From: Bacteroidales bacterium
GTDB lineage: Bacteria; Bacteroidota; Bacteroidia; Bacteroidales; VadinHA17
Assembly: GCA_035299385.1 (NCBI GenBank)
Contig: DATGWQ010000076.1
Span: forward strand, 28,267 to 92,266
Reading direction: 5' to 3'
Length of the DNA: 64,000 nt
The notes under the pieces are model-generated. The model was not told where the DNA came from and made no database searches. It saw only the letters and a program-made list of their open reading frames with translations. This document shows, one piece after another, positions 3,113 to 60,231 of the stretch (the stretch's first letter is position 1; each line of letters begins with the position of its first letter). A program made the position numbers and the translations under genes.

Positions 3113-3700
3113 ATGTCTGACATAAAAACTCGAAAAGCAATGACTATCTACGTTAAAAATATGGCCTGCCTTCACTGCCAGGAGCTGGTGAAGTCGGAAC
3201 TTGAAAAGCTGGGATTGCACAGACCTGTCATATCCCATGGCGAAGTTAAAATCTCACAGGAACTTTCGCCGTTTAAAAAAGCTGAACTGGACAGGGCCCT
3301 GAGAAGATCGGGGTTCGAGCTCATGGATCCGCAAAAAGTAATGCTGGTAAAGAAGATACGGGGTATTGTAGATGAGTTTCTTCACTATTCGGAGGAACAG
3401 CTCAGGCAGGTTCTTCCCGGTTACCTTTCAAGGAAGCTCAAACATGATTACAATTATCTTTCACAGCTCTTTTCGGAAGTGTACAACACAACTATTGAAA
3501 AATATTTTGTTCTTGCAAAAATTGAACGTGTGAAAGAACTGCTTGTTTATTACAGGCTCAATCTTACAGAAATATCCTATCAATTGAACTATAACAGCAT
3601 AGCCCAGCTTGCTAACCAGTTCCGTGAAGTAACCGGAATCTCTCCAAACAACTTCCAGAAAATCAAATACATACGACAGACTGCCCAACAGAATGTGTGA
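3113..3700 (+). CDS. AraC-family transcriptional regulator with HMA-like N-terminal domain (paralog 1, CxxC present)
   Basis: N-terminus IYVKNMACLHCQELVKSELEKLGL (ferredoxin-like, MxCxxC). C-terminal AraC HTH (LTEISYQLNYNSIAQLANQFREVTGISPNNF). Paralogous to 53207, 58597 and 48369. Confidence 0.85.
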   Translation: MSDIKTRKAMTIYVKNMACLHCQELVKSELEKLGLHRPVISHGEVKISQELSPFKKAELDRALRRSGFELMDPQKVMLVKKIRGIVDEFLHYSEEQLRQVLPGYLSRKLKHDYNYLSQLFSEVYNTTIEKYFVLAKIERVKELLVYYRLNLTEISYQLNYNSIAQLANQFREVTGISPNNFQKIKYIRQTAQQNV

Positions 3701-3760
3701 ATGATATAATTTTAATTCAGTAATATGTAACACTTGGGGGGCTAAAGCTCAGCATATTTG
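3693..3760 (+). promoter_or_regulatory. three-box promoter element, copy C (box 1 contains the TGA stop of AraC paralog 1)
   Basis: ATGTGTGA (3693-3700), TATAAT (3705-3710), TGTAAC (3726-3731), then 21 nt to CATATTTG (3753-3760). Confidence 0.55.
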
Positions 3761-3835
3761 TACTGATTTTTTTTCTGACCGCTCAGTGGGGGTCCGGATA
3801 AAAAAGGAGTGTATAACATTACAATTCCTTTATGT

Positions 3836-4432
3836 ATGGAAAAGAATACTTTTATCAGTACAGAGCAACTAATTGTCCAGAACAATAATAACACAGGAGT
3901 AAGTGAAAATCCAATAAGAGAAAAACTTTCTGATGCCAGGTACAGGCTTTATTACGATTACCTGGAATGGCTTGGTTTTTCAGATGATCCGAATGTTATC
4001 GTTCTCGCTCCCAATGAGCATTACTATTATGATGATGAAGATCTCAGGCATGTATCTGCGCTGGTAAATCTCAAACAGCTGAATTACATAAGAGAGTTAA
4101 AGGATTTTCTGACAACCGTATTCCAGATGCTGCCCCACAGGAGTTTTTTTGTAGGAAGCTTCATTGAAAGGAAACATCAGTTCAGCTTTTTTTCCAATCC
4201 GCCGCATGCCACACATATAAACGGCAGCATTGATCCAGTAGAGAACGGCATAGCCTCCAGGATCCCGCTTCTGAATATTATTTACGATTTCATTGATTCC
4301 CGCACAAATAACAGGAACCTAACTAGAAAATCAGTTACAACAATGCTTGAAATTGCCGGATTCAGGCTGCTTGATATGACGGAAATCAATGGGATTACCT
4401 GCTTCTGCGCTCAAAAAAACACTTTATCGTAA
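3836..4432 (+). CDS. hypothetical protein, methyltransferase-fold-like but without a GxGxG SAM loop
   Basis: The ORF opens at 3809 with GTG; the first ATG is 3836 (MEKNTF...). The C-terminal ...MLEIAGFRLLDMTEINGITCFCAQK resembles class I MTase C-termini. No glycine-rich loop seen. Confidence 0.55.
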   Translation: MEKNTFISTEQLIVQNNNNTGVSENPIREKLSDARYRLYYDYLEWLGFSDDPNVIVLAPNEHYYYDDEDLRHVSALVNLKQLNYIRELKDFLTTVFQMLPHRSFFVGSFIERKHQFSFFSNPPHATHINGSIDPVENGIASRIPLLNIIYDFIDSRTNNRNLTRKSVTTMLEIAGFRLLDMTEINGITCFCAQKNTLS

Positions 4433-5954: not shown

Positions 5955-6022
5955 CTTAACCTTATTTTAAGCCTTTCTTAATTCATGCTTAATGATTTAC
6001 CGGCATATTACGTGTATGTTAG
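5955..6022 (+). promoter_or_regulatory. 11-bp-phased TTAA array, copy X (upstream of wza)
   Basis: CTTAAC 5955, TTTAAG 5966, CTTAAT 5977, CTTAAT 5988, then 21 nt to TATGTTAG (6015-6022). Confidence 0.55.
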
Positions 6023-6177
6023 TCATGATAAACGTGACATGAATTTTCAGGCGTTTTCTTGTTGCATAAAGGGAAAAAAGAAAAAACAACTATATATAAA
6101 TCAATATTTTACAACAATTCTCCAACCTGAGCAAAAAACAGGTTATTGATTGATTTTATTTAAACAAGAAGAAACAT

Positions 6178-6948
6178 ATGCAGAAAATGCTCCTGAAATT
6201 TATTTGGATCGGCACCGTCCTTATGGTGCTTATTCTGAATTCGTGCGTCCCTGTCAGCCAGCTGAGCTATTTCAACGACATTGAAAAGCTTCAGCCCGTT
6301 GTGAATCCGAAAACCCAGAAGATCATAATGCCATTTGACAAGCTTTACATCAAAGTCCTGAGTATCGATCCCCAGACCACTCAGATCTTCGCCACAAACG
6401 AGGAAGTGAGAGCGGGTACCATGGGCGCAGGCAACATACTGGGATACCCGGTAGATGAATCAGGGAACATAAATTTCCCTTTTGTCGGTACCATCAATGT
6501 GGGTTCGCTGACAACCGCCCAGGCAGCTTCAAAAATCGAGAAAGCTCTGAGCGATTATGTGGCAAACATTTCAGTTAGTGTCAAATTTATTGATAATGAG
6601 GTTACAGTGATTGGTGAAGTCCAGAGGCAGGGAGTCTATAATTTCAGCCAGGATAAAATCAGCATTTATGAAGCGATTGGACTAGGCGGCGGGCTGACAC
6701 GGTACGGCGACAGGAAAAATATAATCCTCACGCGGAACAATGGCGAGAAAATTGTCCATTACAGGCTTAACCTTTCAGATTCAAAGATAGCTTCAAAAGA
6801 TTACTACTATGTGCTGCCGAATGATATAATAATAGTAGAGCCTCTCAGAGCTGTCTCTGCAAGTTACTCGAATATTACCTATACCACCGTTCTAAGTTCA
6901 ATCACGACACTGATTGCTGTTCTGCTCTTTACCGGTGTCAAATTTTAA
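6178..6948 (+). CDS. wza: polysaccharide export outer-membrane protein (Wza family)
   Basis: Signal/lipoprotein-like N-terminus (LNSC), Poly_export-like NFPFVGTINVGSLTTAQAASKIEKALSDYV, and SLBB-like ...VTVIGEVQRQGVY. Confidence 0.9.
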   Translation: MQKMLLKFIWIGTVLMVLILNSCVPVSQLSYFNDIEKLQPVVNPKTQKIIMPFDKLYIKVLSIDPQTTQIFATNEEVRAGTMGAGNILGYPVDESGNINFPFVGTINVGSLTTAQAASKIEKALSDYVANISVSVKFIDNEVTVIGEVQRQGVYNFSQDKISIYEAIGLGGGLTRYGDRKNIILTRNNGEKIVHYRLNLSDSKIASKDYYYVLPNDIIIVEPLRAVSASYSNITYTTVLSSITTLIAVLLFTGVKF

Positions 6949-6959
6949 ACAGAAAATAA

Positions 6960-9338
6960 ATGGCAAATCAGAACCAATACGCTTCCAATGCCTTGATAAT
7001 AAAGGATTTTCTCGCCCAGGTGCTTTCGCTTAAATACTATTATATAGTAAGCTTCCTGATCCTTCTCGGAATTGCTTTCGTAGTCAACAGGTACTCGCCG
7101 GTGGTTGTCGAGGCCAACACAGTTATTGGTCCTATTGAGGATCAAAGGGCTGCGCTCCTCGGGTCAAATGACCTGTTCAGGGGGCTTGTCTCTTATGAAC
7201 AGGCAAGGAATATTGAGAATGACATAAATAACATCAAGTCATTCACCCTTGTCTCGGCCACGCTCAGCAAGATGAGCCTTGAAGTGGGCTATTTCACAAA
7301 GAAAAGCCACTTCCTCGACCATGACAGGCAGGTTTACCCCGATCCTCCTTTCCATGTCAGTATAGACAAGTCACATATCCAGCCTATCGATGCAAAGATC
7401 AATTTCAGCGTAATCGACAGTAATACTTACAGGATACAAATTGAAGAGGATGAAGTATCGCTTTACAACTATATCGATAATGCGGTAATCAGCGAAAAGA
7501 ATGTAATAAAGATCGATACCGTCTGCAAGTTCAATGAGACAGTCAGCAACAGGTACTTAAAATTCGTTGTTAATCTCACAATGCCGGGAGTTTTTTCAAA
7601 CCGCCGTGAGAAACCGCACGATTACTATTTTGTTTTTTACAATCTCGATGATCTCGCCAGAGGCTATCTCGAAAACATCGAGGTGAAACCGGTTACACTC
7701 AGGTCGTCTCTTATCAATGTTTCGATGAAAGGCAAGAATATCAGCCTCATAATAGATTTTCTGAATACTTATGTCCAGACCTTCCTCGACGATAACCTGT
7801 CAAAGAAAAACAAGATGTCGTATAATGCAGTCAGCTTTATCGACAGGCAGATAGCGAATACTTCGGATTCCCTTAACCAGTCGGAATCAAGGCTTAAGGA
7901 TTACAGGTCTGCAAACCAGGTTATGGATCTGAGCTATCAGGGTCAGCAGGCGTTTCAGCAGATGAGCCAGATCGAATCAGACAGGACGCAGCTGCAGATA
8001 CAGGAAAGGTACTACAGGTCGATCCTGGAAAATTTTGAAAAGAATGCCAATATAGCAGGAATTGCACCTCCTTCAGCGGCAAACATCAACGACCCTATTA
8101 TGAATACCCTTATTCTCGATCTTCATGCGCTTAATACCGAACGCTCTAACATTATGGGCAACGCATCGGAGAAGAATCTTTTCCTTGGCCAGATAGACAA
8201 TAAGATAAAGCTGCAGAACCAGGCAATCCTGGAGAATGTCAAGAACAACCTGAATACACTTGTTTTGAAGAAAAATGAGCTTGATTACAGGCAGCAGAAA
8301 CTTTCGCAGGAGCTATCGAGGCTTCCCAGGACGGAGCTGAACATGGTGAGCATGCAAAGGAAATTTGACGTCAGCGGCAATGTTTATACTTTCCTGCTGC
8401 AGAAAAGGACGGAAGCAGCAATAACGGCGGCTTCGAACCATCCCGATTACGAGATACTCGAGCCCGCAAGGTATACAACCCGCAACATCATTTCTCCGAA
8501 ACCAATGATGAACTACATGTTTGCTCTTTTCTTTGCTCTGCTGCTACCGACCGGATACCTTCTGCTCAAGAATTTCTTCAATGAAAACATAACCCGTGTC
8601 TGGGATGCCGAGGTTCTGCTGAAAAGGCCGGTCATCAGCATAATTTACAAGAATCCGATGAAGACCGATGCGGTTGTAACTGAAGCTCCCACATCACCCA
8701 TTGCCGAATCGTTCAGAAACCTCAGGAGCAGGCTCTTCCTGAAGTATAAGAACCGGGAGCTCAGAACAATTGTTGTTACATCGTCACAACCTCGTGATGG
8801 CAAAAGTTTTATATCGTATAACCTAGCCGCGTCGATTGCGGGAGTCGGGCATAAAACGATATTGATAGATTGCGACCTCAGGCGTCCTACCCTTCATGCC
8901 ACATTGAATATGAAAAATGAGCTGGGAATAACCAATTATCTCGCTGACAATGTTTCGAAAGAAAATATCATACATGAGACGAACACCGAAAACCTGTTCT
9001 TCATACCTGCGGGACCAATCCTTGCAAATTCTTCAGAAATGCTTGAAGGAGGTTCACTTGACAACCTTATAGAATGGCTTAAAATTTCATTCAGATACAT
9101 CATAATCGATTCACCTCCAATGGGCATCGTTTCAGAGGCTACTCAGGTTATAAAGTATGCCTCACATATATTGTTTGTATGCCGGAACAATTATACAAGG
9201 AAAGATGTTTATACCGATGTGTTGAACATGTTCCGTACAAACAATATCGAGAACTTTGATGTAGTGTTTAACGACATGGATATTGACAGAAGCAAATATG
9301 GTCACTACCGTGACTACTATTACAAGAGGGCTGAATAA
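6960..9338 (+). CDS. wzc: polysaccharide co-polymerase / tyrosine autokinase (Wzc/GumC-like)
   Basis: Two TM segments flank a coiled periplasmic domain. Walker A-like SSQPRDGKSFISYNLAAS, DCDLRRP, and a C-terminal Tyr cluster YGHYRDYYYKRAE. Confidence 0.9.
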   Translation: MANQNQYASNALIIKDFLAQVLSLKYYYIVSFLILLGIAFVVNRYSPVVVEANTVIGPIEDQRAALLGSNDLFRGLVSYEQARNIENDINNIKSFTLVSATLSKMSLEVGYFTKKSHFLDHDRQVYPDPPFHVSIDKSHIQPIDAKINFSVIDSNTYRIQIEEDEVSLYNYIDNAVISEKNVIKIDTVCKFNETVSNRYLKFVVNLTMPGVFSNRREKPHDYYFVFYNLDDLARGYLENIEVKPVTLRSSLINVSMKGKNISLIIDFLNTYVQTFLDDNLSKKNKMSYNAVSFIDRQIANTSDSLNQSESRLKDYRSANQVMDLSYQGQQAFQQMSQIESDRTQLQIQERYYRSILENFEKNANIAGIAPPSAANINDPIMNTLILDLHALNTERSNIMGNASEKNLFLGQIDNKIKLQNQAILENVKNNLNTLVLKKNELDYRQQKLSQELSRLPRTELNMVSMQRKFDVSGNVYTFLLQKRTEAAITAASNHPDYEILEPARYTTRNIISPKPMMNYMFALFFALLLPTGYLLLKNFFNENITRVWDAEVLLKRPVISIIYKNPMKTDAVVTEAPTSPIAESFRNLRSRLFLKYKNRELRTIVVTSSQPRDGKSFISYNLAASIAGVGHKTILIDCDLRRPTLHATLNMKNELGITNYLADNVSKENIIHETNTENLFFIPAGPILANSSEMLEGGSLDNLIEWLKISFRYIIIDSPPMGIVSEATQVIKYASHILFVCRNNYTRKDVYTDVLNMFRTNNIENFDVVFNDMDIDRSKYGHYRDYYYKRAE

Positions 9339-15467: not shown

Positions 15468-15535
15468 CTTAACTCCGTTTTAAATCCTTCTTAATTCTCT
15501 CTTAATCAAGAAGACACGGTTATTTAATACTTTCA
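15468..15535 (+). promoter_or_regulatory. 11-bp-phased TTAA array, copy Y (upstream of the FISUMP lipoprotein)
   Basis: CTTAAC 15468, TTTAAA 15479, CTTAAT 15490, CTTAAT 15501, then 21 nt to TACTTTCA (15528-15535, a weak -7 match). Confidence 0.5.
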
Positions 15536-15561: not shown

Positions 15562-17142
15562 ATGAAAAGACAAACTGACTATTTACTTGTAACACTCTTT
15601 GTTTCAGGCCTTTTAATACTGACAGGATGTAAAAAGCTGGACCCGCCAACAGTTTCGACCGGCGCTGTTTCTGATGTGACACTGACAACAGCCAAAGCCG
15701 GAGGAAACATTCTTGATGACGGCGGTGCTGATGTGACGGCCCGGGGAGTTGTCTGGGGCACCCAGACTGAACCGACAACATCAGGCGACATGACATCTGA
15801 CGGCACCGGATCCGGCGAGTTTACCAGCCAACTTTCAGGACTTGAAGAGGGCACCACGTACTATCTCAGGGCCTATGCCACGAACAGCGAGGGAACCGCT
15901 TATGGAGATGAGGTTACCTTCGCAACTGCTTCAACATCAACTGCATCGATAACCACTACGGCAGTAACCGCAGTTACGTTCACATCTGCAGTGACAGGCG
16001 GCAATATTACCAGTGACGGATTGGCGCCAGTTACTGCAAGAGGCGTTGCATATGGTACAGCTGCCAATCCAACCGTAGCAGGCAGCAAGACAACCGATGG
16101 ATCAGGAGCCGGAACCTTTACAAGCAATCTTACAAATCTTGCAGAGGGTACTACATATTACGTAAGAGCCTATGCAACAAACAGCAGGGGGACGGCTTAC
16201 GGGAACGAAGTCACGTTCAGCACGACTGCAGCAAGCACAGCCACACTGACAACAGCCGCACTCACAAATTTATCACTTACGGGAGTCACAACAGGTGGAA
16301 ACATAACCGGTGACGGCGGGGCTGCCGTGACTGCCAGGGGCGTCGCCTACGGAACAGCTGCCAGTCCGACCGTCACAGGGACAAAAACAACCAACGGAAG
16401 CGGCACTGGTGCATATGTCAGCAGTATCACCGGACTTAGCCCGGGTACAGTTTACCATCTGAGAGCATATGCTACCAACAGCAAGGGCACTGTTTATGGC
16501 AATGAACTAACCTTTGTAACCCCTATTGCCGATATTGAAGGCAATGTATACAAGACAGTTCTCATCGGCACCCAGGTATGGATGGCTGAAAATCTCAAAT
16601 CGACACGGTTCAACAACAATACTGTAATTCCTCAGGTAACTGACAGCGTCCAGTGGATGGCCCTTACAACTCCTGCGTACACCTGGTACCGCAACAAGGA
16701 CGCCAATAAGACGAATGGGGCCCTTTACACATGGTTCACAGTTGCAGCAGGCAACCTTTGTCCGCAGGGCTGGCATGTTCCGACAAATGCAGAGTATCAG
16801 ACAATGGAAGTTGCAGTTGGTGTTCCTGCCGACAGTGTCAATAACTGGGGATGGAGAGGGAACGGTGCTGGTACAAAGCTGAAAGATGCAGTTGCATGGG
16901 GAACAGGTCATGGCACCAATACAACAGGGTTCACTGCCATGCCATCAGGATATCGCGCGTGGGCCAATGGGGAATTCAGAGGTCTTGGCGAAATTGCATA
17001 TTACTGGACTGCTTCAGACGATGCAGTAAACGGGCATGCTGATGTTGGATGGTATCGTCGTCTGGATGCAACATCTCCATGGATATACAAGGCAACAACC
17101 GGCAAAACCGGTGGCAAAAGTGTCAGGTGTATTAAAAATTAG
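15562..17142 (+). CDS. surface lipoprotein with three tandem ~97-aa repeats and a C-terminal FISUMP (Fibrobacter succinogenes major paralogous) domain
   Basis: Lipoprotein signal (LLILTGC). Three repeats end in TYY(L/V)RAYATNS.GT.YG.E.TF. C-terminus has DIEGNVYKTVLIGTQVWMAENLK...GWHVPT...GFTAMPSGYR...SVRCIKN. Confidence 0.9.
   Translation: MKRQTDYLLVTLFVSGLLILTGCKKLDPPTVSTGAVSDVTLTTAKAGGNILDDGGADVTARGVVWGTQTEPTTSGDMTSDGTGSGEFTSQLSGLEEGTTYYLRAYATNSEGTAYGDEVTFATASTSTASITTTAVTAVTFTSAVTGGNITSDGLAPVTARGVAYGTAANPTVAGSKTTDGSGAGTFTSNLTNLAEGTTYYVRAYATNSRGTAYGNEVTFSTTAASTATLTTAALTNLSLTGVTTGGNITGDGGAAVTARGVAYGTAASPTVTGTKTTNGSGTGAYVSSITGLSPGTVYHLRAYATNSKGTVYGNELTFVTPIADIEGNVYKTVLIGTQVWMAENLKSTRFNNNTVIPQVTDSVQWMALTTPAYTWYRNKDANKTNGALYTWFTVAAGNLCPQGWHVPTNAEYQTMEVAVGVPADSVNNWGWRGNGAGTKLKDAVAWGTGHGTNTTGFTAMPSGYRAWANGEFRGLGEIAYYWTASDDAVNGHADVGWYRRLDATSPWIYKATTGKTGGKSVRCIKN
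15643..16527 (+). repeat. three tandem ~290-bp coding repeats (protein-domain repeats) inside the lipoprotein gene
   Basis: The protein repeats are read directly from the translation; boundaries are approximate. Confidence 0.7.
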
Positions 17143-48783: not shown

Positions 48784-49407
48784 TCAGTATGATACGAAGC
48801 TTAGATTTACCATATTGTATTTCTTGGCTTCATTATACCTGCTCTCAACGATCTCCCAGTTGACAAGATTCCAGAAAGCATCGAGGTAATCGTTGCGCCT
48901 GTTATGATAGTCGAGGTAATAGCTGTGTTCCCATACATCGCATGCAAGAAGCGGGGTGAAGCCTTTCCTGAGCGGATTGCCTGCGTTATTTTCAGGCATT
49001 ATCTCGAGAGATCCCCTTGGATTCCAGCACAGCCAGATCCAGCCTGCGCCGAAAAGGGCGGAGGCTTTCCTGATAAATGCTTCCTTGAAATACTGTACTG
49101 AGCCAAAGCTTCCTGATAAAACCTTGGAGAAAGCTCCATGGAGATTGCTCCTGTCACCCGGGATCATACTTTCGAAGTAGAAATTATGATTCCAGACCTG
49201 CGATGCGTTATTGAAGACAGGCCCGTCGGTTACCTTTATGATGGTCTCGAGCTCTGTGTCTTCATATTTGGTCCCGCTGATCAGGTCATTGAGGTTATTC
49301 ACGTATGTAAGTTGAAGCTTATTATAGTGAATATCCATAGTAGTACCTGAAATATGGGGTTCAAGTGCATCCAGAGAGTATGGTAATTGTGGTAATACAA
49401 ACAACAT
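48784..49407 (-). CDS. Fe/Mn superoxide dismutase
   Basis: LPQLPYSLDALEPHIS..., NNASQVWNHNFYF, DVWEHSYYLDYHNRRNDYL; metal ligands His, His, Asp and His are all identifiable. Confidence 0.9.
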   Translation of the reverse strand: MLFVLPQLPYSLDALEPHISGTTMDIHYNKLQLTYVNNLNDLISGTKYEDTELETIIKVTDGPVFNNASQVWNHNFYFESMIPGDRSNLHGAFSKVLSGSFGSVQYFKEAFIRKASALFGAGWIWLCWNPRGSLEIMPENNAGNPLRKGFTPLLACDVWEHSYYLDYHNRRNDYLDAFWNLVNWEIVESRYNEAKKYNMVNLSFVSY

Positions 49408-49462: not shown

Positions 49463-49530
49463 CAAAAATACAGCAGAGATGCCGGTGACCGATTAAGGCC
49501 GAATTAATTCTAAATTAAGTTTCAATGAAG
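49463..49530 (-). promoter_or_regulatory. 11-bp-phased TTAA array, copy V (upstream of sod)
   Basis: Minus strand: CTTCAT (49530), CTTAAT (49519), ATTAAT (49508), CTTAAT (49497), then 21 nt to TATTTTTG (49470-49463). Confidence 0.55.
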
Positions 49531-49544
49531 AACCAAAGTGCGCG

Positions 49545-50222
49545 TTATTCCTCAACATTGACGGAATAACCAAACCCTTTCTTGGTATGGATAAGCTTTT
49601 TATCGAATCCCTTGTCGATTTTCTTCCTGAGTGAATTAATATGGACATCGATAACGTTGGTACCTGAATTGAAGGAGAAGCCCCATATCTTTTCAGCAAT
49701 GAGAAATCTGTCATACACTTTTCCCTGGTTGCTGAGGAGAAGCTCAAGTATCTTGTATTCTGTTGCGGTGAGATTGATTTCCTTCCCGCTTCTTTTCACC
49801 CTTCTCGAAACCGAGTCAAGTTCCAGGTCGGCAATAGCCAGAACGGGGTTCACAATCGCATCCCTGTTGCGCCGGTTGAGCGCTTTTATCCTGGCAAGAA
49901 GCTCCTGGAAGCTGAACGGCTTCACAAGATAATCATCTGCGCCATATTCAAAACCCGTAAGCTTGTCTTCAACTGAATCGAGTGAAGTCAGCATTATTAT
50001 AGGTGTGAGGATCTTATTGTTCCTGATTTTTTTGCATAGTTCAAAGCCGGATATGCCCGGAATGACAACATCGAGAACGATAACGTCGTATTTTCGCGAA
50101 AGCGCCAGTTTCTCTCCGATTGTGCTGTCATAGGCTATATCAACGAAACATTCATTGCTCTCAAGCCCTATCTTCACGAATGAGGATATTTTTTGATCAT
50201 CTTCAACCAAGAGTACTTTCAT
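49545..50222 (-). CDS. OmpR/PhoB-type response regulator (REC plus winged-helix)
   Basis: MKVLLVEDDQKI..., DVVIPGISGFELC..., and a C-terminal trans_reg_C-like ...LTATEYKILELLL...GFGY. Confidence 0.9.
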   Translation of the reverse strand: MKVLLVEDDQKISSFVKIGLESNECFVDIAYDSTIGEKLALSRKYDVIVLDVVIPGISGFELCKKIRNNKILTPIIMLTSLDSVEDKLTGFEYGADDYLVKPFSFQELLARIKALNRRNRDAIVNPVLAIADLELDSVSRRVKRSGKEINLTATEYKILELLLSNQGKVYDRFLIAEKIWGFSFNSGTNVIDVHINSLRKKIDKGFDKKLIHTKKGFGYSVNVEE

Positions 50223-50506: not shown

Positions 50507-50968
50507 ATGGGGAATAATGTGCATGATCCTATTGACATCCTGATTGTTGAGGATAATCCCGGAGATGCCAGGCTCATAAGGGAAGTGCTTAACAGCAATA
50601 AGGGATACACATCGCTTCACATCGTGAATGACGGGGTCGAAGCAATGGATTTCCTGAACAATGGAGGAAAATTCGAGAATGCACCGAGGCCTGATCTGAT
50701 AATCATAGACCTGAATCTTCCCAGGAAAGATGGAAGGGAAGTTCTGGCTGAAATCAAGTCTGATCCTGACCTCCAGCACATCCCGGTTGTTGTGATGACA
50801 ATCTCGCAGGCTGAAGAAGATATCCATAATACCTATAAGCTCCATGCGAACTGCTATATTACAAAACCAATAGATCTTAACGAATTCATCAGGGTTATCA
50901 AATCAATTGAAGAATTCTGGTTCTCTGTTGTAAAGCTTCCTCCTAAAAGAGAGCTTAAAAAATGGTGA
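50507..50968 (+). CDS. single-domain response regulator (REC only)
   Basis: ILIVEDNPGDARLI..., PDLIIIDLNLPRKDG..., YITKP. Confidence 0.9.
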   Translation: MGNNVHDPIDILIVEDNPGDARLIREVLNSNKGYTSLHIVNDGVEAMDFLNNGGKFENAPRPDLIIIDLNLPRKDGREVLAEIKSDPDLQHIPVVVMTISQAEEDIHNTYKLHANCYITKPIDLNEFIRVIKSIEEFWFSVVKLPPKRELKKW

Positions 50969-52779
50969 TTAAAGCTGAACAAATGGCGATCACAACTCTG
51001 ACAAAAAACAAGGCAGAAGTTGAACAGGCTATAAGGATCCTCATGATTGAGGACAATCCCGGCGACCTGATTATTGTCCGCGAGCTGCTTAAAAGCTCTA
51101 AGACGGGGTTCTCTCTGTCAAACACCCCCACCCTCAGGGATGCCATTGCCCTGCTGAAAAACAATATATATGATGTAATCCTGCTTGACCTTGGTCTTCC
51201 TGAAAGCTCAGGCATAGAGACGCTAAAGGAATTCCTCAGCATAGAGGTCAGCCCTCCGGTTGTGGTTATGACAGGCCTTGATGACGAGGAAATGGCCATC
51301 GCTGCACTGCGTGAGGGAGCACAGGATTATCTCGTCAAAAACAGGCTTACCCCGGAAAATATCATAAAATCAATCCGGTACAGTATAGAAAGAAAAAAAC
51401 TCGAGAATCTCGAGAAGAAGAACAGCCGGCAGATGGCGATCCTTTCGTCGACTACATCTGCATTGTATGAGGGCGGCGAAATTTCACAGGTGTACACGCT
51501 CCTGTGCAGCAGCATAAGGAAACTTCTCGGAAATGCCTTCATAGCTGCTCTTGAGAAAACAGGCGATGATGCGTACAAGCTTAGCAATACTGAACAATTC
51601 ATCCCACTGGTCGAAAATCTGAAGCAACTGGGCGGAAATTACGAGTTCAGCCCGGATGAAATAAGTGCAACACTGGCCAGGATGCTCGGTGACGGGAAAA
51701 TCCACCATATTCCCGGCGGCGTTCCGGGACTAATGAAACAGGCAGACACTGCAGATTACAGGAAACTTGAATCAGAAGCGGGCATATCTCATGTTTACGC
51801 TATTGGCATCCTCAAGGATACTTTCCACTATGGCGGAATAATTATACTCTCAGGATCAGCACTTGAAGAAGGTGATAAAGGCTTTATCGAAAACATGTGC
51901 AGCCAGGCTTCACTAAGCATATACAGAAGTGTTATCCAGAAAAATCTTATCAGGAGTGAAGCACGATACCAGAGGCTTGCAGGTGAACTGGAGGAAATGG
52001 TAAAAGCGCGTACGGCAGAACTGGAACAAGCCAATATACAGCTCAGGAAAAGTGAAGCACAGCTCATGGAGCTCAATGCTACAAAAGACAAGTTCTTCAA
52101 TATTGTTGCCCATGACCTTAAAAACCCGTTTACAAGCCTTCTCGGCGCCACAGAACTGCTCTTCCACAATATCCAGAATATGGATACAGAGAAGATCAGA
52201 AAACTCGCCCAGATCCTGAATGATTCGGCAAAAAGCGGGTATGCCATTCTGCTCAACCTTCTCGACTGGTCAAGGTCACAAACCGGAACTATCAGGATCA
52301 ACCTCCAGAAGATAAATCTGAAGACCATCGTCGACGACAACATAGCCGATACGGCGCTCAGTTCCCTCGACAAGGATATTCTACTTGAATCGGATCTGAA
52401 AGAAGACATCCTCGTTATTGCCGACAGGAACATGATCAATACGGTCCTCAGGAATCTTCTCAGCAATGCCATCAAATTCACCAACAGGGGAGGCAAAATA
52501 AATGTCTGCTGCATAAAGACGGATTTCGAGGTACAGATTTCAGTAAGGGATAATGGTATCGGAATAGGAAAGGAAAATATAGACAAGCTCTTCAGAATCG
52601 ATTCAAAATACACCCGCCCTGGAACTGAAAAAGAAGGAGGAACCGGGCTCGGCCTGAAGCTCAGCAGGGAATTCGTCGAAAAGCTCGGAGGCAAAATCTG
52701 GGTGATCAGCAATGAAAATGAAGGTTCGGAATTCTTCTTTACTATCCCTTTTATCAGCAGCGAATTATCGTCCATTTGA
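50962..52779 (+). CDS. cytoplasmic hybrid sensor kinase: N-terminal REC, central sensory region, HisKA and HATPase_c
   Basis: ILMIEDNPGD...DVILLDLGLPESSG; H-box FFNIVAHDLKNPFTSL; N/G boxes LRNLLSNAIKFT, DNGIGI, GTGLGL. No TM segments seen. Confidence 0.9.
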   Translation: MVIKAEQMAITTLTKNKAEVEQAIRILMIEDNPGDLIIVRELLKSSKTGFSLSNTPTLRDAIALLKNNIYDVILLDLGLPESSGIETLKEFLSIEVSPPVVVMTGLDDEEMAIAALREGAQDYLVKNRLTPENIIKSIRYSIERKKLENLEKKNSRQMAILSSTTSALYEGGEISQVYTLLCSSIRKLLGNAFIAALEKTGDDAYKLSNTEQFIPLVENLKQLGGNYEFSPDEISATLARMLGDGKIHHIPGGVPGLMKQADTADYRKLESEAGISHVYAIGILKDTFHYGGIIILSGSALEEGDKGFIENMCSQASLSIYRSVIQKNLIRSEARYQRLAGELEEMVKARTAELEQANIQLRKSEAQLMELNATKDKFFNIVAHDLKNPFTSLLGATELLFHNIQNMDTEKIRKLAQILNDSAKSGYAILLNLLDWSRSQTGTIRINLQKINLKTIVDDNIADTALSSLDKDILLESDLKEDILVIADRNMINTVLRNLLSNAIKFTNRGGKINVCCIKTDFEVQISVRDNGIGIGKENIDKLFRIDSKYTRPGTEKEGGTGLGLKLSREFVEKLGGKIWVISNENEGSEFFFTIPFISSELSSI

Positions 52780-53091: not shown

Positions 53092-53159
53092 CTTAACCCT
53101 GCCTTTAGGTTGATTTAATTTAAAATTAATCACAGGCAAATCTTTTAGGCTTAAGTTAG
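53092..53159 (+). promoter_or_regulatory. 11-bp-phased TTAA array, copy W (upstream of AraC paralog 2; box 2 degenerate)
   Basis: CTTAAC 53092, CTTTAG 53103, TTTAAT 53114, ATTAAT 53125, then 21 nt to TAAGTTAG (53152-53159). Confidence 0.45.
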
Positions 53160-53206: not shown

Positions 53207-53773
53207 ATGATGAAGCTGTATATTAAAAATATGGTATGTGACCGTTGTAAACTGACGGTTAAAGCTGAAATTGAAAAACTCGGCCTTCATTATATATATG
53301 TTGACTATGGTGAAGCTGAAATCAGGGAAAGCCTTTCTGATGAAAAAATGGAAATGCTCAATGCCGGGCTGAAAAAATCAGGTCTTGAGCTGATGGACGA
53401 CAAAAAAAGCATGCTCATAGAAAAGATCAAGCTGCTGATAGTCGAGCTTGTGCATTACTCTGATGAACCGCTGAGGAAGAATCTTTCTGATTACCTGAGC
53501 GAAAAGCTGAATTACGATTACACATACCTGGCAAATCTCTTTTCGGAAGTACAGGGAACAACGATAGAGAAGTTCTTTATTATGCATAAGATCGAGAAAG
53601 TGAAAGAGCTTCTGGTTTATGATGAGCTTAACCTCAAGGAGATAGCATTCAAGCTTCATTACAGCAGCGTCGCCCACCTCTCGAGCCAATTCAAGAAACA
53701 AACCGGCTATACGCCTTCTCACTTCAAGCAGCTCAAGCAGAAAAAGCGCGTGCCGCTCGAATTTGTTCAATAA
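53207..53773 (+). CDS. AraC-family transcriptional regulator with HMA-like N-terminal domain (paralog 2, CxxC present)
   Basis: MMKLYIKNMVCDRCKLTVKAEIEKLGL... plus AraC HTH (LKEIAFKLHYSSVAHLSSQFKKQTGYTPSHF). Confidence 0.85.
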   Translation: MMKLYIKNMVCDRCKLTVKAEIEKLGLHYIYVDYGEAEIRESLSDEKMEMLNAGLKKSGLELMDDKKSMLIEKIKLLIVELVHYSDEPLRKNLSDYLSEKLNYDYTYLANLFSEVQGTTIEKFFIMHKIEKVKELLVYDELNLKEIAFKLHYSSVAHLSSQFKKQTGYTPSHFKQLKQKKRVPLEFVQ

Positions 53774-53799: not shown

Positions 53800-53869
53800 A
53801 AGTGTGAGAAAAATGTAATTTTTTATTTTTTTAATGTAACATTAAACACTGCCAGGAATCCAACCTTTG
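53800..53869 (+). promoter_or_regulatory. three-box promoter element, copy D
   Basis: AAGTGTGA (53800-53807), TGTAAT (53814-53819), TGTAAC (53835-53840), then 21 nt to AACCTTTG (53862-53869). About 25 nt after the stop of AraC paralog 2 and upstream of the small membrane protein cluster. Confidence 0.55.
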
Positions 53870-53908
53870 TATATTATTTGTTTAAGTAAAAAATTAAAAA
53901 TTACACAA

Positions 53909-54061
53909 ATGGGAAACTTGCTCTATGTAATAGCCGTAATTCTGGTCATAGCATGGCTGATCGGACTGGTTGGATTTCACGCTGGTGGTATTATCCACGT
54001 ACTACTTGTAATTGCAGTTATAGCAATTATTCTAAGACTTATTCAGGGAAGGGGTGTATAA
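53909..54061 (+). CDS. lmo0937-family small membrane protein
   Basis: MGNLLYVIAVILVIAWLIGLVGFHAGGIIHVLLVIAVIAIILRLIQGR. The track start at 53867 is TTG; the first ATG is 53909. Confidence 0.7.
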   Translation: MGNLLYVIAVILVIAWLIGLVGFHAGGIIHVLLVIAVIAIILRLIQGRGV

Positions 54062-54112
54062 GTTACCCCTGTGATTTTATTCTGATTTTTAACAATTAAA
54101 AAAATTAAAGCT

Positions 54113-54364
54113 ATGAGTTCAGGAAAAGTGTTATTGGGTGTGCTGACAGGTCTTGCAGCCGGAGCCATTCTAGGAATTCTGTTTGCTCCCGACAAAGGTT
54201 CGGAGACACGCAGGAAAATAGTTGAAAAAGGTGGCGATTATGCTGACGCAGTAAAGGAAACCTTTAACCAGGTTGTCGACAGCGTCAATGAGAAATTCGA
54301 TAAAGTCAGGGGCGATGTCGAATCAAAGGCCAGAACGGCAAAAAATGAATCGGCAATGATTTAA
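54113..54364 (+). CDS. YtxH-domain protein
   Basis: LLGVLTGLAAGAILGILFAPDKGSETRRKI is the YtxH signature. Confidence 0.8.
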   Translation: MSSGKVLLGVLTGLAAGAILGILFAPDKGSETRRKIVEKGGDYADAVKETFNQVVDSVNEKFDKVRGDVESKARTAKNESAMI

Positions 54365-54412
54365 ATTATAGCAAAACCGAATTCGGCAGTATCGCAAATA
54401 AAATGCAAGTCA

Positions 54413-54769
54413 ATGGAGGAGAAAAGTACTTTCGAAGCACTTCTTGAAAGAGTAGAAGATTATTCCAGAACCAGCATTGAGCTGCTGAGGCTGAAAGCAG
54501 TGGACAAGATATCAGATGGGGCGTCTTCGGCAGCATCCAAAACAGCTGGTCTGTTCTTCTTTTTGATGTTCTTCATACTGGCATCCGTGGGATTATCGCT
54601 TTGGCTTGGTGAGGTGTTGGGCAAGTCGTGGTATGGATTCTTTGCCCTGGCAGGGTTCTATGGCATTTTATGCGCGATACTGTTTTTTGTCAAACACAAC
54701 TGGCTCAAGAAAGTGGTCAGCAATAGTATAATCAAACAAATGCTTTCTGACAATGCAAAAAATAACTAA
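54413..54769 (+). CDS. holin-X-like ('phage holin family') small membrane protein
   Basis: Amphipathic N-terminus (FEALLERVEDYSRTSIELLRLKAVDK) followed by two TM segments. Confidence 0.6.
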   Translation: MEEKSTFEALLERVEDYSRTSIELLRLKAVDKISDGASSAASKTAGLFFFLMFFILASVGLSLWLGEVLGKSWYGFFALAGFYGILCAILFFVKHNWLKKVVSNSIIKQMLSDNAKNN

Positions 54770-55043
54770 TGCAGAAGAGCTCAGGGAAGCTATCGTCCGC
54801 CTGGAAGACAGGAAAAAAGCTGAGCAGGAATTGCTGAAAGCTGAGTTTCAGGTTACAAAGGAAAAGCTCAAACCTTCAAATGTTGTCAGAAACACATTCA
54901 GCCAGATCTTTACGGGCCCGAACCTTATAAGGACCGTCATGATAATAACCGTGGGGCTGACCGCTGGGTATATCACCAAGAAGTATTTCCAGGGTCTGAC
55001 GGGCCGGTTACTCAGACGTTTGCTCGGCAGGGTAATGTACTGA
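54753..55043 (+). CDS. hypothetical small protein (coiled N-terminus, one TM)
   Basis: 17-nt overlap with the upstream gene. The last gene before the terminator at 55069. Confidence 0.5.
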   Translation: MQKITNAEELREAIVRLEDRKKAEQELLKAEFQVTKEKLKPSNVVRNTFSQIFTGPNLIRTVMIITVGLTAGYITKKYFQGLTGRLLRRLLGRVMY

Positions 55044-58471: not shown

Positions 58472-58539
58472 GTTAACTCCATCTTAATTTCATCTTAATT
58501 CATACTTAATGTCTTCCCTTCTTATTTAGCATATTTTTG
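58472..58539 (+). promoter_or_regulatory. 11-bp-phased TTAA array, copy Z (upstream of AraC paralog 3 and mscS)
   Basis: GTTAAC 58472, CTTAAT 58483, CTTAAT 58494, CTTAAT 58505, then 21 nt to TATTTTTG (58532-58539). Confidence 0.55.
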
Positions 58540-58596: not shown

Positions 58597-59169
58597 ATGA
58601 AAATATCAGTTAAAAACATGGTTTCCACACGTTGTATTCTGATGGTGAAGGCAGAACTCGAAAGCCTGAAAATTCCGTACGAATCTGTGGAGCTTGGAGA
58701 GATCGAAACCGCTGTTAATGTACCTGAAGACAAGGTCAGGCTACTTGATCAGCGCCTCAGGATGATAGGACTCGAGGTGAGGGAAAATAAAAAATATCAG
58801 ATCGTCGAGAAGATCAAGGAAGCAATTGCCGACCTCGTCCACAACACAGATGAACAGATGAAAGTCACTCTTTCAGATTACCTTAGCAGGCGTCTGAATC
58901 ATAACAGCACATACCTTTCAAACCTGTTTTCCGAAATAACCGGAGTATCAATTGAAAAATACTTTATAACAAGGAAGATTGAACATGTGAAGAGGCTGCT
59001 TGTTAATGAAGGGCTCAACCTTAAGGAGATCTCCTACATCACCAATTACAGCAGTGTTGCGCACCTTTCATACCAGTTCAAGAAAATGACTGGTTTTGCG
59101 CCTTCCGAATTCCGTTCCATGCTGAGCAGGAGTGAAATGAAGCTGCAGGAGGCAGCTTACCAGATATAA
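58597..59169 (+). CDS. AraC-family transcriptional regulator with HMA-like N-terminal domain (paralog 3, SxxC)
   Basis: MKISVKNMVSTRCILMVKAELESLKI... plus AraC HTH (LKEISYITNYSSVAHLSYQFKKMTGFAPSEF). Confidence 0.85.
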   Translation: MKISVKNMVSTRCILMVKAELESLKIPYESVELGEIETAVNVPEDKVRLLDQRLRMIGLEVRENKKYQIVEKIKEAIADLVHNTDEQMKVTLSDYLSRRLNHNSTYLSNLFSEITGVSIEKYFITRKIEHVKRLLVNEGLNLKEISYITNYSSVAHLSYQFKKMTGFAPSEFRSMLSRSEMKLQEAAYQI

Positions 59170-59181
59170 CCGCGTAAACGG

Positions 59182-60231
59182 ATGAAAGATTATTTCAGAA
59201 GCGAAACGCTTGATCTTCTCCTGCGAACTGTTCTGCTTGCTGCAATTCTTGTAGTTGTATCATTCATATATTTCAGGCTCTTCGCATGGGCACGCAGGAA
59301 AGTTTTGAAAACAGAATCCACGTTTGATGATTATGCTGTCAATCTTTTCAGGTCTCCCCTGCTGCTGCTTCTTTACTGGTTTTTCCTCTTCCCCTTCATC
59401 AGCCTGTACAGGAATTTCGCTGTACACGGAGCCCTTCTGAAGATCAGCAGCCTTTTGCTGATCTTCACGCTGGCATGGCTGGCAATTCAGTTCATTTCTG
59501 CAGGAGCATATTACATCCAGACAAGATTCGATGCCGGGGGTACGACCAGCATAAAAGCAAGGAAAAACCTGACACAGGTGAAGGTTTTCAGGGCAATTGC
59601 CGTCACCATAATAGTGATTATTGCCATTGGAGCCGGACTGATGACCTTTGAGCAGGCACGAAAAGTAGGTGTGAGCGTGCTGACATCAGCCGGGATCATA
59701 GGAGTCATTGTCGGCATTGCGGCCCAGAAAAGCCTTGGTATGATCCTGGCCGGCATTCAGCTTGCGATCACACAACCGATAAGGATCGACGACACCGTTA
59801 TACTTGAAGGAGAGTTCGGGATTATTGAAGAGATACAGCTCACATATGTCATCGTGCGTATCTGGGATGAGAGGCGCATGATTGTGCCTGTGACATATTT
59901 CCTGGAGAAACCATTTCAAAACCTGACAAGAACGACATCGGGCACTACAGGAACCATTTCCCTTTATGTTGATTACGGCTTTCCCGTGGACAGCATCCGG
60001 AAAGTTCTTCCCGGTCTCCTCGGCAATAATACAAACTGGGATGGAAGGACTGCAAACATCGAGGTAAGCGACAGCACCGGAAATTATAAGGAAATAAGGA
60101 TAGTACTCAGCAGTTCGGATTCCGGGAAAAACTGGAATCTTCGCACTGCAATTCGTGAAAAGCTTATTGATTTTATAAATGCAAATTACCCCGATGCTTT
60201 TGCCAGGATAAGAATAAAAACAGTTCAGTGA
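59182..60231 (+). CDS. mechanosensitive ion channel (MscS family)
   Basis: TM segments then GIIGVIVGIAAQKSLGMILAGIQLAITQPIRIDDTVILEGEFGIIEEIQLTYVIVRIWDERRMIVP. Confidence 0.9.
   Translation: MKDYFRSETLDLLLRTVLLAAILVVVSFIYFRLFAWARRKVLKTESTFDDYAVNLFRSPLLLLLYWFFLFPFISLYRNFAVHGALLKISSLLLIFTLAWLAIQFISAGAYYIQTRFDAGGTTSIKARKNLTQVKVFRAIAVTIIVIIAIGAGLMTFEQARKVGVSVLTSAGIIGVIVGIAAQKSLGMILAGIQLAITQPIRIDDTVILEGEFGIIEEIQLTYVIVRIWDERRMIVPVTYFLEKPFQNLTRTTSGTTGTISLYVDYGFPVDSIRKVLPGLLGNNTNWDGRTANIEVSDSTGNYKEIRIVLSSSDSGKNWNLRTAIREKLIDFINANYPDAFARIRIKTVQ

Follow-up and report, generated by a model that had tools for sequence, protein, structure and literature searches.

Phased four-box TTAA arrays at promoters of a Bacteroidales genome and a neighbouring OmpR/PhoB-family response regulator as their candidate activator

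Five promoters in a 64,000-nucleotide stretch of Bacteroidales DNA (the window) are each preceded by four TTAA-cored hexamers, which raises the question of what reads these arrays and which functions are controlled through them. An earlier note on this DNA had described the elements as four nTTAAn boxes at 11-bp phasing, with exactly 21 nt between the last box and a TAnnTTTG-like octamer (the -7 box). Every coordinate and hexamer agrees with the sequence, the 21-nt distance is exact in all five cases, and each element spans 68 bp. The arrays, the genes that they precede, and the response regulator gene beside array V (RR-X) are as follows:

Array X, 5955..6022, plus strand: boxes at 5955, 5966, 5977, and 5988 (CTTAAC, TTTAAG, CTTAAT, CTTAAT)
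Array X -7 box, 6015-6022, plus strand: TATGTTAG, promoter of wza-wzc
wza, 6178-6948, plus strand: polysaccharide export (Pfam Poly_export/SLBB), target of array X
wzc, 6960-9338, plus strand: polysaccharide export (Pfam GNVR/AAA_31), target of array X
Array Y, 15468..15535, plus strand: boxes at 15468, 15479, 15490, and 15501
Array Y weak -7 box, 15528-15535, plus strand: TACTTTCA, promoter of the FISUMP-domain lipoprotein gene at 15562-17142
Array V, 49463..49530, minus strand: boxes at 49530, 49519, 49508, and 49497 (CTTCAT, CTTAAT, ATTAAT, CTTAAT)
Array V -7 box, 49470-49463, minus strand: TATTTTTG, promoter of sod, between the RR-X stop codon and sod
sod, 48784..49407, minus strand: Fe/Mn superoxide dismutase (Pfam Sod_Fe_N and Sod_Fe_C), target of array V
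RR-X, 49545..50222, minus strand: OmpR/PhoB-family response regulator (Pfam Response_reg and Trans_reg_C)
Array W, 53092..53159, plus strand: boxes at 53092, 53103, 53114, and 53125
Array W -7 box, 53152-53159, plus strand: TAAGTTAG, promoter of the small AraC regulator at 53207-53773
Array Z, 58472..58539, plus strand: boxes at 58472, 58483, 58494, and 58505
Array Z -7 box, 58532-58539, plus strand: TATTTTTG, as in array V, promoter of the small AraC regulator at 58597-59169 and mscS at 59182-60231

All five arrays of the 64-kb window are intergenic, oriented toward the downstream gene, and of low GC (0.23-0.28), with 26-155 nt from the end of the -7 box to the ATG. The flanks around them are unrelated, and the arrays are therefore not a mobile repeat. 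Phasing of this kind had been expected to be rare by chance and was found to be so, as a search for TTAA-N7 four times with ≤1 mismatch returned 6 matches in the window compared to a mean of 0.01 in 100 dinucleotide shuffles. Periods of 8-10 and 12-14 gave 0 matches in the window, even with 2 mismatches, and the distances between TTAA pairs in the window peaked at 11, 22, and 33 nt (15, 10, and 5 pairs, respectively; ~1-2 at other distances). The layout of a direct-repeat operator (6-8-bp half-site, 10-11-bp centre-to-centre) was thus found at period 11 only. A separate ‘three-box element’ reported by the earlier note was not confirmed, with three-box scans of the window recovering sub-arrays of the five alone. 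Isolated TTAA-N7-TTAA pairs at 1716, 53831, and 62666 resemble background, and one or two weaker in-phase boxes lie further upstream of array Z (58461, 58450). A scan for E. coli-type promoters and terminators was uninformative for Bacteroidetes; a ‘terminator’ at 49484-49471 merely overlaps the -7 box of array V.

Pfam assignments agree with the genes first proposed to be served by the arrays, namely Wza/Wzc, a FISUMP-domain lipoprotein, an Fe/Mn SOD, and two small AraC-type regulators, one of which is followed by MscS. The label ‘HMA’ given to the AraC regulators fared less well, as two of the N-termini had Pfam HMA matches below threshold (E 0.004-0.009) and the third, that of the array Z regulator, had none.

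Beyond the window, the array and its 21-nt spacing to the -7 box recur in dozens of other Bacteroidales contigs. At the wza promoter, one of those singled out for a check of orthologues, the boxes and the -7 box are kept in four orthologous loci (Wza identity, 73-87%) with diverged flanks. Counterparts of array W occur at orthologous AraC genes in two loci (L021, array at 6103 on the minus strand, and L071), and counterparts of array Z at orthologous AraC+MscS operons in another two (L051 and L076; 72-74% identity), with a perfect TAnnTTTG at +21. A further array near-identical to Z was found in a locus that stops 140 nt beyond the -7 box, before any readable gene (L079). Array Y was not found before the FISUMP genes of three syntenic loci (L208, L209, and L211), which indicates that it is lineage-specific.

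The geometry is equally rigid across loci. A perfect TAnnTTTG occurs exactly 21 nt past box 4 in 43 of 57 arrays, with ≤1 mismatch in 55 of 57, and the stretch from box 4 to the -7 box has no conserved TTTG, at -33 or elsewhere. Among 52 non-redundant arrays, the repeated motif is T-CTTAAT with a 4-bp, partly A/T-rich spacer; box positions T2, T3, A4, and A5 are 97-100% invariant across these divergent arrays, with variable spacers in which G and C are tolerated. A genome-wide pattern scan gave at least 118 matches, most of them plain 11-bp microsatellites or Cloacimonadota repeat elements, which are distinct from the arrays and unrelated to promoters.

A candidate reader of the arrays is encoded beside one of them. 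The stop codon of RR-X lies 15 nt from array V, and the window encodes no other DNA-binding regulator of the OmpR type. Putative signalling partners of RR-X are encoded at 50507..52779:

Single-domain receiver (50507-50968) and hybrid histidine kinase (50962-52779), plus strand: divergent from RR-X, assigned by Pfam

This divergent layout is repeated on other contigs with an identical RR-X, and a kinase gene is also divergent from RR-X in L021, L087, and L130. The comparative set consisted of 80 metagenome loci with RR-X relatives, 40 of which contain close orthologues (≥61% identity, ≥300 nt of sequence past the stop). A same-strand array lies ≤300 nt past the RR-X stop in 27 of these 40 loci, and at sod, the other promoter proposed for an orthologue check, the order of RR-X, array, and then ECF sigma factor and/or sod holds in 27 of the 40 close loci and also in L021. 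Within 1.5 kb of RR-X, array density (4.97 per 10 kb) is 8 times that found further off on the same contigs (0.60 per 10 kb), and 67 arrays were observed in the RR-X loci compared to 0 in shuffled controls. An array immediately precedes the RR-X gene itself in three loci (L145, L153, and L183) and the divergent kinase in one (L130), and in a more distant RR-X clade with a regulator-kinase operon (45-55% identity) 9 of 23 loci have it immediately past the kinase. Most arrays are downstream of RR-X, before its neighbours, rather than upstream of RR-X. Conserved synteny with the sod and sigma factor genes might account for the linkage to RR-X.

RR-X itself falls below all curated cut-offs, including those for PhoB, PmrA, and RprY. 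Its nearest NCBIfam model is the heavy-metal CztR/SilR/CopR subfamily (TIGR01387, 241 bits, under the cut-off of 279), the HprR model scores 219 bits, and the nearest solved DNA-binding domain is that of PcoR (2JZY, E 2e-26), with the PmrA DNA-binding domain as a distant match (2M87, E 7.6e-9). The recognition helix of RR-X (TNVIDVHINSLRKK) keeps the DNA-reading residues Thr187, Asn188, and Val192 of PmrA (T-N-x3-V), of which Asn188 contacts the ‘AA’ of TTAA (PMC4660055; PMC10570014). PcoR also has T-N-x3-V. Because the box reported for CusR and the copper-regulator group is different, this sharing weakens the argument from the recognition helix. RprY of Porphyromonas was rejected as an orthologue of RR-X (126 bits compared to a cut-off of 370); the RprY paper reports no motif, and the sod promoter served there as a negative control. 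No described Bacteroidota regulator with a TTAA-array motif was found in the literature searched.

The targets near RR-X relatives also include an ECF sigma factor, fumC, RR-X itself, and its kinase, and among the pattern-scan matches listed for other Bacteroidota, arrays precede bacterioferritin/OsmC, rubrerythrin-like, and cytochrome bd genes. Taken with the targets in the window, this gene set suggests a response to stress, oxidative or general, that also involves the envelope.

The arrays are probably the sites of RR-X, a response regulator of the same window that would activate stress and envelope genes, and most likely represent a new regulon of a well-known regulatory type. Each 68-bp element may serve the primary sigma factor of Bacteroidetes as a promoter that depends on an activator, in which four (T)CTTAAT half-sites at 11-bp spacing (7-bp repeat plus 4-bp spacer) would be bound by phosphorylated RR-X as two head-to-tail dimers on one helix face. 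As box 4 ends 21 nt before TAnnTTTG, the promoter-proximal protomer would occupy the place of the usual -33 TTTG and could recruit RNA polymerase in a class II-like manner via sigma region 4 and/or alpha, which may be likened to PmrA and PhoB at promoters with a box in place of the -35 element. The predicted regulon within the window would comprise sod, wza-wzc, the FISUMP lipoprotein, and the two small AraC-type secondary regulators, one with MscS. The proposal that a multimeric factor on one DNA face replaces the -33 TTTG is thus retained from the earlier note and agrees with the recurrence of the arrays, the wza footprint, the lack of a conserved TTTG, and the linkage to RR-X. Sequence comparison establishes the arrays with their fixed spacing, their persistence between genomes, and the linkage to RR-X, and from these we infer the mechanism, with RR-X as the binder, its stoichiometry, activation rather than repression, and the signal.

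It is unlikely that the arrays are Pho boxes read by PhoB, the phosphate regulator, or by a further OmpR/PhoB paralogue from beyond the window, with RR-X a mere neighbour and the sod, EPS, and AraC genes falling within a broad phosphate-starvation or stress regulon. In some proteobacteria, PhoB controls genes for EPS and for oxidative stress. In L009, L090, L112, and L203, porin-pstSCAB-phoU is preceded by CTTAAY arrays of four boxes, with TAnnTTTG at +21, similar arrays adjoin pst genes in Elusimicrobiota, Planctomycetota, and Ignavibacteria, and cyanobacterial SphR Pho boxes are CTTAACCT-type 8-mers with an 11-bp period (PMC1906773). These arrays at pst operons suggest that PhoB-type regulators read very similar sites and could cross-bind. 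As the main reading of the window, however, Pho boxes were rejected on three grounds. RR-X is not PhoB, failing both PhoB models (TIGR02154, 191 compared to 296.2; NF053854, Bacteroidetes PhoB, 174.5 compared to 270). Phosphate genes are absent as targets, with no phosphate-related gene served by the 5 window arrays or by ~60 arrays near RR-X, and no pst or pho homologues occur in the window. Lastly, position 7 of the box is different, with an A in 21 of 28 boxes of pst-linked arrays (8 of 12 in Bacteroidota) but in 19 of 224 boxes of RR-X-locus arrays, counted with an array detector that ignored position 7, and in 0 of 20 in the window. A confirmed Bacteroidota PhoB (L206, NF053854 320.8 bits) also differs in its recognition helix and has TGTAAT-type boxes about 10 nt from the -7 box, and PhoB leaves the 8-fold enrichment of arrays around RR-X unexplained.

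The small AraC-type regulators, with their HMA-like N-terminal domain, might instead bind the arrays and autoregulate, a dimer contributing four HTH units to four successive major grooves, though this appears quite improbable. AraC-family dimers on direct repeats touch four major grooves on one face, and arrays directly precede small AraC genes at W and Z and also in L021, L051, L053/L092, L071, L076, L082, L126, and L155; small AraC genes are the most frequent single target class, as is classic for an autoregulated factor. Yet the third small AraC gene (3113-3700) is without an array in the window and in four syntenic loci, and many array-bearing loci have no small AraC gene in reach (e.g., L087, L042, L023, L099, and the pst loci). 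An AraC/XylS-family operator has half-sites of about 17-20 bp, each composed of two unlike sub-boxes for two different HTH units, but the four boxes follow one common consensus, without the A/B alternation that such units should give. Arrays built in this way also stand at pst operons of other phyla, where they can be ascribed to PhoB-type regulators. We know of no AraC-family operator of this form. A related idea, that the arrays are shared operators integrating two inputs, is highly doubtful; in its boldest form the small AraC paralogues, with HMA-like and partly CxxC-bearing N-terminal domains, would act as redox- or metal-sensing dimers whose four HTH units each read one of four identical TTAA boxes, to our knowledge a mode undescribed for the AraC family.

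The arrays are AT-rich, lie ahead of the core promoter, and have a phase near the helical repeat, but it is hardly credible that they are UP-like or intrinsically curved DNA acting without a protein, or an artefact of chance or repetition. The match count given above rules out chance, box positions 2-5 stay invariant while spacers vary freely among the 52 divergent arrays, and the five window arrays contain no phased A4+ tracts. The invariant TTAA cores, the G and C in the spacers, and the absence of such tracts also speak against the protein-free curved element that the earlier note had offered as its second interpretation.

Almost nothing has been mapped of how transcription is controlled in uncultured environmental Bacteroidales, and the arrays supply a cis-element, a candidate regulator, and a rigid promoter grammar (4 x 11 bp, 21 nt, TAnnTTTG), along with a target list of sod, an ECF sigma factor, EPS export, small AraC regulators, and fumC. 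With either RR-X or the AraC regulators as the binder, a background of ~0.6-0.8 arrays per 10 kb would correspond to a regulon of possibly about two hundred promoters in each genome, and in such a global regulon an activator array would systematically substitute for the -33 element. The arrays offer a system for testing how, at promoters of the unusual Bacteroidetes sigma factor, an activator takes the place of the -33 element, and could yield inducible promoter parts. The half-site of the PmrA and Pho boxes (YTTAAY at 11 bp) appears to be reused by different OmpR-family regulators in several phyla, raising the question how such regulators escape cross-talk with PhoB, for which box position 7 is a candidate discriminator.

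Among known systems, ArcA binds 2-5 direct repeats at 11 bp, with a half-site that also includes GTTAA, and TorR binds four tor boxes. These multi-repeat operators resemble the arrays in that one helical face carries three or more direct repeats and, on the binding mode proposed here, in being read by more than one dimer, but belong to unrelated lineages and signals, and ArcA is mostly a repressor with variable positions compared to the fixed -7 distance here. The heavy-metal and peroxide regulators CusR, CopR, PcoR, and HprR are the closest protein relatives of RR-X, and the link of HprR to an oxidative-stress-type regulon resembles that predicted for RR-X. In contrast, the recognition helix of PcoR has AVRR where RR-X has HINS, and no copper or silver efflux genes are served by the arrays.

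The Pho box, both of the cyanobacterial CTTAACCT type and in the tandem boxes of E. coli pstS, has an 8-mer and a 3-nt linker that give the same 11-bp period, near-identical sequences in several tandem repeats, and a fixed distance to a -10-type element at which it stands in for the -35 element. An SphR Pho box (CTTAATTCtatCTTAATTTcgaCTTAATCA) has the half-site and spacing of the arrays (PMC1906773). Unlike the arrays in the window and near RR-X, which avoid A at position 7, the arrays at pst operons prefer it.

In the PmrA box, a pair of XTTAAY hexamers separated by 5 nt overlaps the -35 element (PMC10570014), with the hexamer also given as YTTAAK (PMC10927774). It has two half-sites compared to four here, at promoters of the Bacteroidetes -7/-33 type. 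By its score, RR-X is no orthologue of PmrA (NF007928, 164.6 bits; cut-off, 330), and the targets are sod, EPS export, and secondary regulators, with no lipid A modification gene among those identified. PmrA (BasR) of the Enterobacteria and Acinetobacter is nonetheless alike in its hexamer and 5-nt spacing (e.g., CTTAAT), and RR-X keeps the Thr-Asn...Val of its recognition helix; its box overlaps or replaces the -35 element and is bound by a head-to-tail dimer of an OmpR/PhoB-family regulator, as is proposed here for RR-X and the -33 element.

Each of the five arrays in the window consists of four nTTAAn boxes with an 11-bp period, followed after 21 nt by a TAnnTTTG-like -7 box; on direct reading, the hexamers, 11-bp register, 21-nt spacer, and -7-like octamers described in the earlier note were exact at all five places. 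A search for TTAA-N7-TTAA-N7-TTAA-N7-TTAA with at most one mismatch returned six matches in the window, the sixth being a register-shifted match of array Z, compared to a mean of 0.01 in 100 dinucleotide-preserving shuffles. Periods of 8–10 and 12–14 gave zero four-box matches in the window, even at two mismatches, and the histogram of TTAA-to-TTAA distances peaked solely at 11, 22, and 33 nt. All five arrays lie between genes, each pointing at the next gene, with 26–155 nt from the end of the -7 box to the start codon. The features concerned are as follows.

5955: array X, upstream of wza-wzc
15468: array Y, upstream of the FISUMP lipoprotein gene
49530, minus strand: array V, upstream of sod
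53092: array W, upstream of a small AraC gene
58472: array Z, upstream of AraC and MscS genes
49545–50222, minus strand: OmpR/PhoB-type response regulator gene (RR-X), stop codon 15 nt from array V
50507–52779, divergent from RR-X: single-domain receiver and hybrid histidine kinase genes
53207–53773: small AraC gene (W regulator), array W upstream
58597–59169: small AraC gene (Z regulator), array Z upstream
3113–3700: third small AraC gene, without an array

Pfam agreed with the assignment of the served genes to Wza and Wzc, a FISUMP-domain lipoprotein, an Fe/Mn superoxide dismutase, and two AraC-type regulators (~190 aa), one followed by an MscS channel gene. The ‘HMA’ N-termini ascribed to the AraC regulators stood only as a weak resemblance of the N-terminal 70–80 aa to the HMA fold, with sub-threshold Pfam matches in two of the three (E 0.004–0.009) and none for the Z regulator, while a separate ‘three-box element’ was not found in scans of the window. 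Two of the small AraCs possess a CxxC (MVCDRC, MACLHC) and the Z regulator keeps one Cys (MVSTRC). The array-less AraC gene is always followed by a conserved ~205-aa gene (3809–4432; no Pfam match on record), just upstream of the EPS locus, and the pair (window 3113–4432) recurs in other loci (L021:4725–5938; L208–L211, ~6900–8260); a homologue of the ~205-aa gene in L128 has its own array. Downstream of the W regulator is a run of small genes (53867–55043; 64, 83, 118, and 96 aa) with no array upstream, most with hydrophobic membrane-like stretches and reminiscent of general-stress proteins.

Regulators of the OmpR/PhoB family bind as head-to-tail dimers on tandem direct repeats with ~11-bp spacing, and the array architecture is, by this analogy, exactly that expected of their binding sites. 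RR-X, the window's sole DNA-binding member of this family, was missed by the earlier note, which had not tied the arrays to the neighbouring response regulator. The nearest NCBIfam models to RR-X were the heavy-metal CztR/SilR/CopR subfamily (241 bits, cut-off 279) and HprR, with RR-X under the cut-off for every NCBIfam equivalog, including both PhoB models, PmrA, and RprY; among solved structures, its DNA-binding domain was nearest to PcoR (2JZY).

A metagenome scan with RR-X recovered 80 loci with relatives of 45–91% identity. Using a matrix derived from the window boxes and summed over four boxes (threshold ≥27 bits), 67 arrays were identified in 717 kb of these loci and none in block-shuffled copies. 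For close orthologues (≥61% identity; 40 loci with ≥300 nt past the stop codon), a same-strand array occurred within 300 nt past the RR-X stop in 27 of the 40 loci, followed usually by an ECF-type sigma factor (confirmed) and/or sod, and sometimes by a small AraC, receiver protein, or lipoprotein gene. Other arrays precede fumC (L155) or the divergent kinase (L130), or lie directly upstream of the RR-X gene itself (L145, L153, L183). Within 1.5 kb of RR-X there were 4.97 arrays per 10 kb, against 0.60 per 10 kb farther out on the same contigs. At 21 nt past box 4, TAnnTTTG was perfect in 43 of 57 arrays and had at most one mismatch in 55. The consensus of 52 non-redundant arrays was T-CTTAAT-nnaT-CTTAAT-c.aa.-(A/C)TTAAT-nnnnT-CTTAAT-t, with no conserved TTTG between box 4 and the -7 box; box positions T2, T3, A4, and A5 were 97–100% invariant and the spacers variable. 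The element genetically linked to RR-X thus comprises four conserved direct repeats at 11 bp with a fixed 21-nt gap to the -7 box and without a -33 element. In a distant clade (45–55% identity) the regulator and a CusS-like kinase share an operon, and 9 of 23 loci have an array immediately past the kinase gene (among them L162, L169, L172, L173, L175, L178, L179, and L181, ~1450–1600 nt past the regulator stop), before a conserved ~560-aa lipoprotein (motif ATDDYFQEIG). Genome-scan loci of this clade (L042 at 4540, L023, L099) have the -7 box 10 nt past box 4, not 21, one repeat closer.

Scanning one genome per species for the exact pattern gave at least 118 loci, many of which were plain 11-bp microsatellites in unrelated taxa. 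At least 12 non-tandem matches, all from Bacteroidales/Bacteroidota MAGs, had a perfect TAnnTTTG exactly 21 nt past box 4; among the matches listed, these arrays preceded AraC and MscS genes orthologous to the Z operon (L051, L076), other small AraCs, bacterioferritin with OsmC, a rubrerythrin-like protein, and a cupin. An array followed by a cytochrome bd gene (L055) was left out of these matches because its -7 box is weak (TATCTTCA). One locus (L021), syntenic with the window at 48.7–53.8 kb, holds four arrays in 8 kb, including one between the RR-X orthologue (83% identity) and an ECF sigma factor with sod, and a second preceding the orthologue of the W regulator. The comparison of orthologous wza promoters proposed earlier found array X conserved in four syntenic loci (Wza 73–87% identical), where invariance upstream of wza is confined to the four boxes and the -7 box and the remainder has diverged, making array X a clean phylogenetic footprint. 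Array Y was not conserved in these four loci.

Arrays also cluster, as in the window, in the Bacteroidota MAG MFD04780.bin.1.106, with at least three strict-pattern arrays in 32 kb (CAWHOW010000016.1, 32–64 kb; L010, L050, L047) and a fourth on another contig (L055), preceding bacterioferritin with OsmC, a dihydroorotate-dehydrogenase-like gene (sod nearby), a lipoprotein then a small membrane protein, and cytochrome bd. Among repeats in the scan, near-perfect tandem runs of the 11-mer CTTAATGAC(C/T)A (L004, L032, L061, L063, L069, L101, L104, L105, L117) were a microsatellite common to several Bacteroidales and Ignavibacteriales MAGs and one MAG labelled Woesearchaeota. Cloacimonadota contigs (L007, L030, L035, L036, L058, L065, L096, L102, L108) have a composite repeat in common, in which 3–4 direct copies of CTTAATCAAG(T/C) precede inverted ones (tattaacgcttgattaaggcttgattaag); it resembles a dispersed repeat element or a set of iterons.

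The scan also matched arrays adjoining pst genes in several phyla, including at porin-pstSCAB-phoU operons.

L027:1628–1700: Elusimicrobiota
L086:1321–1400: Planctomycetota
L080:3607–3644: Planctomycetota
L033:477–514: Ignavibacteria
L009 and L090: Bacteroidota
L112:1856–1930: Bacteroidota
L203:4487–4560: Bacteroidota, via PstS homologues

Six of these (L027, L086, L080, L033, L112, L203) possess CTTAAC/CTTAAT boxes with an 11-bp period directly upstream of pst, so that PhoB-type regulators there would read CTTAAY arrays, making a PhoB-type regulator a serious rival as reader of the window arrays; given such arrays at pst in several phyla, the cyanobacterial-type Pho box seems widespread beyond cyanobacteria. 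By its NCBIfam scores, however, RR-X is not PhoB. A true Bacteroidota PhoB (L206; 320.8 bits on NF053854; beside phoU and a kinase gene, presumably phoR) has a recognition helix that differs from that of RR-X, and the boxes associated with it, in both the porin-pst and the phoU-phoB promoter, are of the TGTAAT/ATTAAT type and lie ~10 nt from the -7 box. None of the ~60 array-served genes of the window and RR-X loci is phosphate-related, and A at box position 7 occurs in 21 of 28 pst-linked boxes (Bacteroidota, 8/12), but in 19 of 224 boxes of RR-X-locus arrays, detected from TTAA cores and the -7 box alone, and in 0 of 20 window boxes. Based on these three lines, the window arrays belong to the RR-X class, though PhoB may cross-bind at them. 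The porin-pst promoters of two other Bacteroidota lineages, one named Prolixibacteraceae (L206/L207), carry four TGTAAT/ATTAAT/TGTAAT/TGTAAY boxes with an 11-bp period (L205:4517–4580; L206:4480–4560), and the phoU-phoB-kinase promoter (L206:2100–2170, minus strand) has a TGTAAT-type four-box array too; the -7-like box in these arrays is only ~10 nt past box 4, a register unlike the +21 class.

The small AraC regulators, whose genes are frequent array targets, could in principle be autoregulated array binders, but one paralogue (3113–3700) has no array either in the window or in four syntenic loci, many array loci lack small AraC genes, the boxes have no A/B alternation, and pst operons share this architecture in phyla where it is accounted for by a PhoB-type regulator. 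The curved, protein-free UP-like element suggested in the earlier note conflicts with the base-specific invariance and with the absence of phased A-tracts.

As the predicted reader of the arrays, phosphorylated RR-X would occupy one face of the DNA as two head-to-tail dimers, by analogy with the PmrA and PhoB transcription-activation complexes. As at Bacteroidetes promoters generally, the start site probably lies ~5–8 nt past the -7 box; with such a start, box 4 would span ~-40 to -35, boxes 3–4 would be centred near -41, and the promoter-proximal RR-X protomer would take the place of the -33 contact, recruiting polymerase. Members from the window (sod, EPS export, AraC regulators with MscS) and RR-X loci (ECF sigma factor, fumC), together with array-served genes of other Bacteroidota MAGs (bacterioferritin, rubrerythrin, cytochrome bd), suggest an oxidative or general stress and envelope response, partly via secondary regulators.

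As a cis-regulatory element the arrays are both real and conserved, and they are best read as the predicted operator of an undescribed regulon under a known regulator family, not as a new kind of system; literature searches turned up no described Bacteroidota regulator with this motif. The element is of interest for its rigid promoter grammar, for how broad the putative regulon is in uncultured Bacteroidales, and because different regulators reuse one half-site. The PmrA box consists of two XTTAAY (YTTAAK) hexamers five nucleotides apart, overlapping the -35 element, with Klebsiella half-sites CTTAAT and CCTAAG (PMC10570014; PMC10927774), and is identical to the arrays in half-site and spacing. 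In the PmrA-DNA structure, Thr187, Asn188, Val192, His195, Asn196, and Arg210 contact DNA, with Asn188 reading ‘AA’ (PMC10570014; PMC4660055). The RR-X recognition helix, TNVIDVHINSLRKK, has Thr, Asn, and Val as T-N-x3-V, like PmrA (register from published residue numbers, not a computed alignment), and D-R occupies the first two of these positions in the verified Bacteroidota PhoB; because PcoR shares T-N-x3-V, the pattern is mild support only. Cyanobacterial SphR Pho boxes are CTTAACCT 8-mers with 3-nt linkers, such as CTTAATTCtatCTTAATTTcgaCTTAATCA of Synechocystis pstS2 (PMC1906773), and are almost identical to the arrays.
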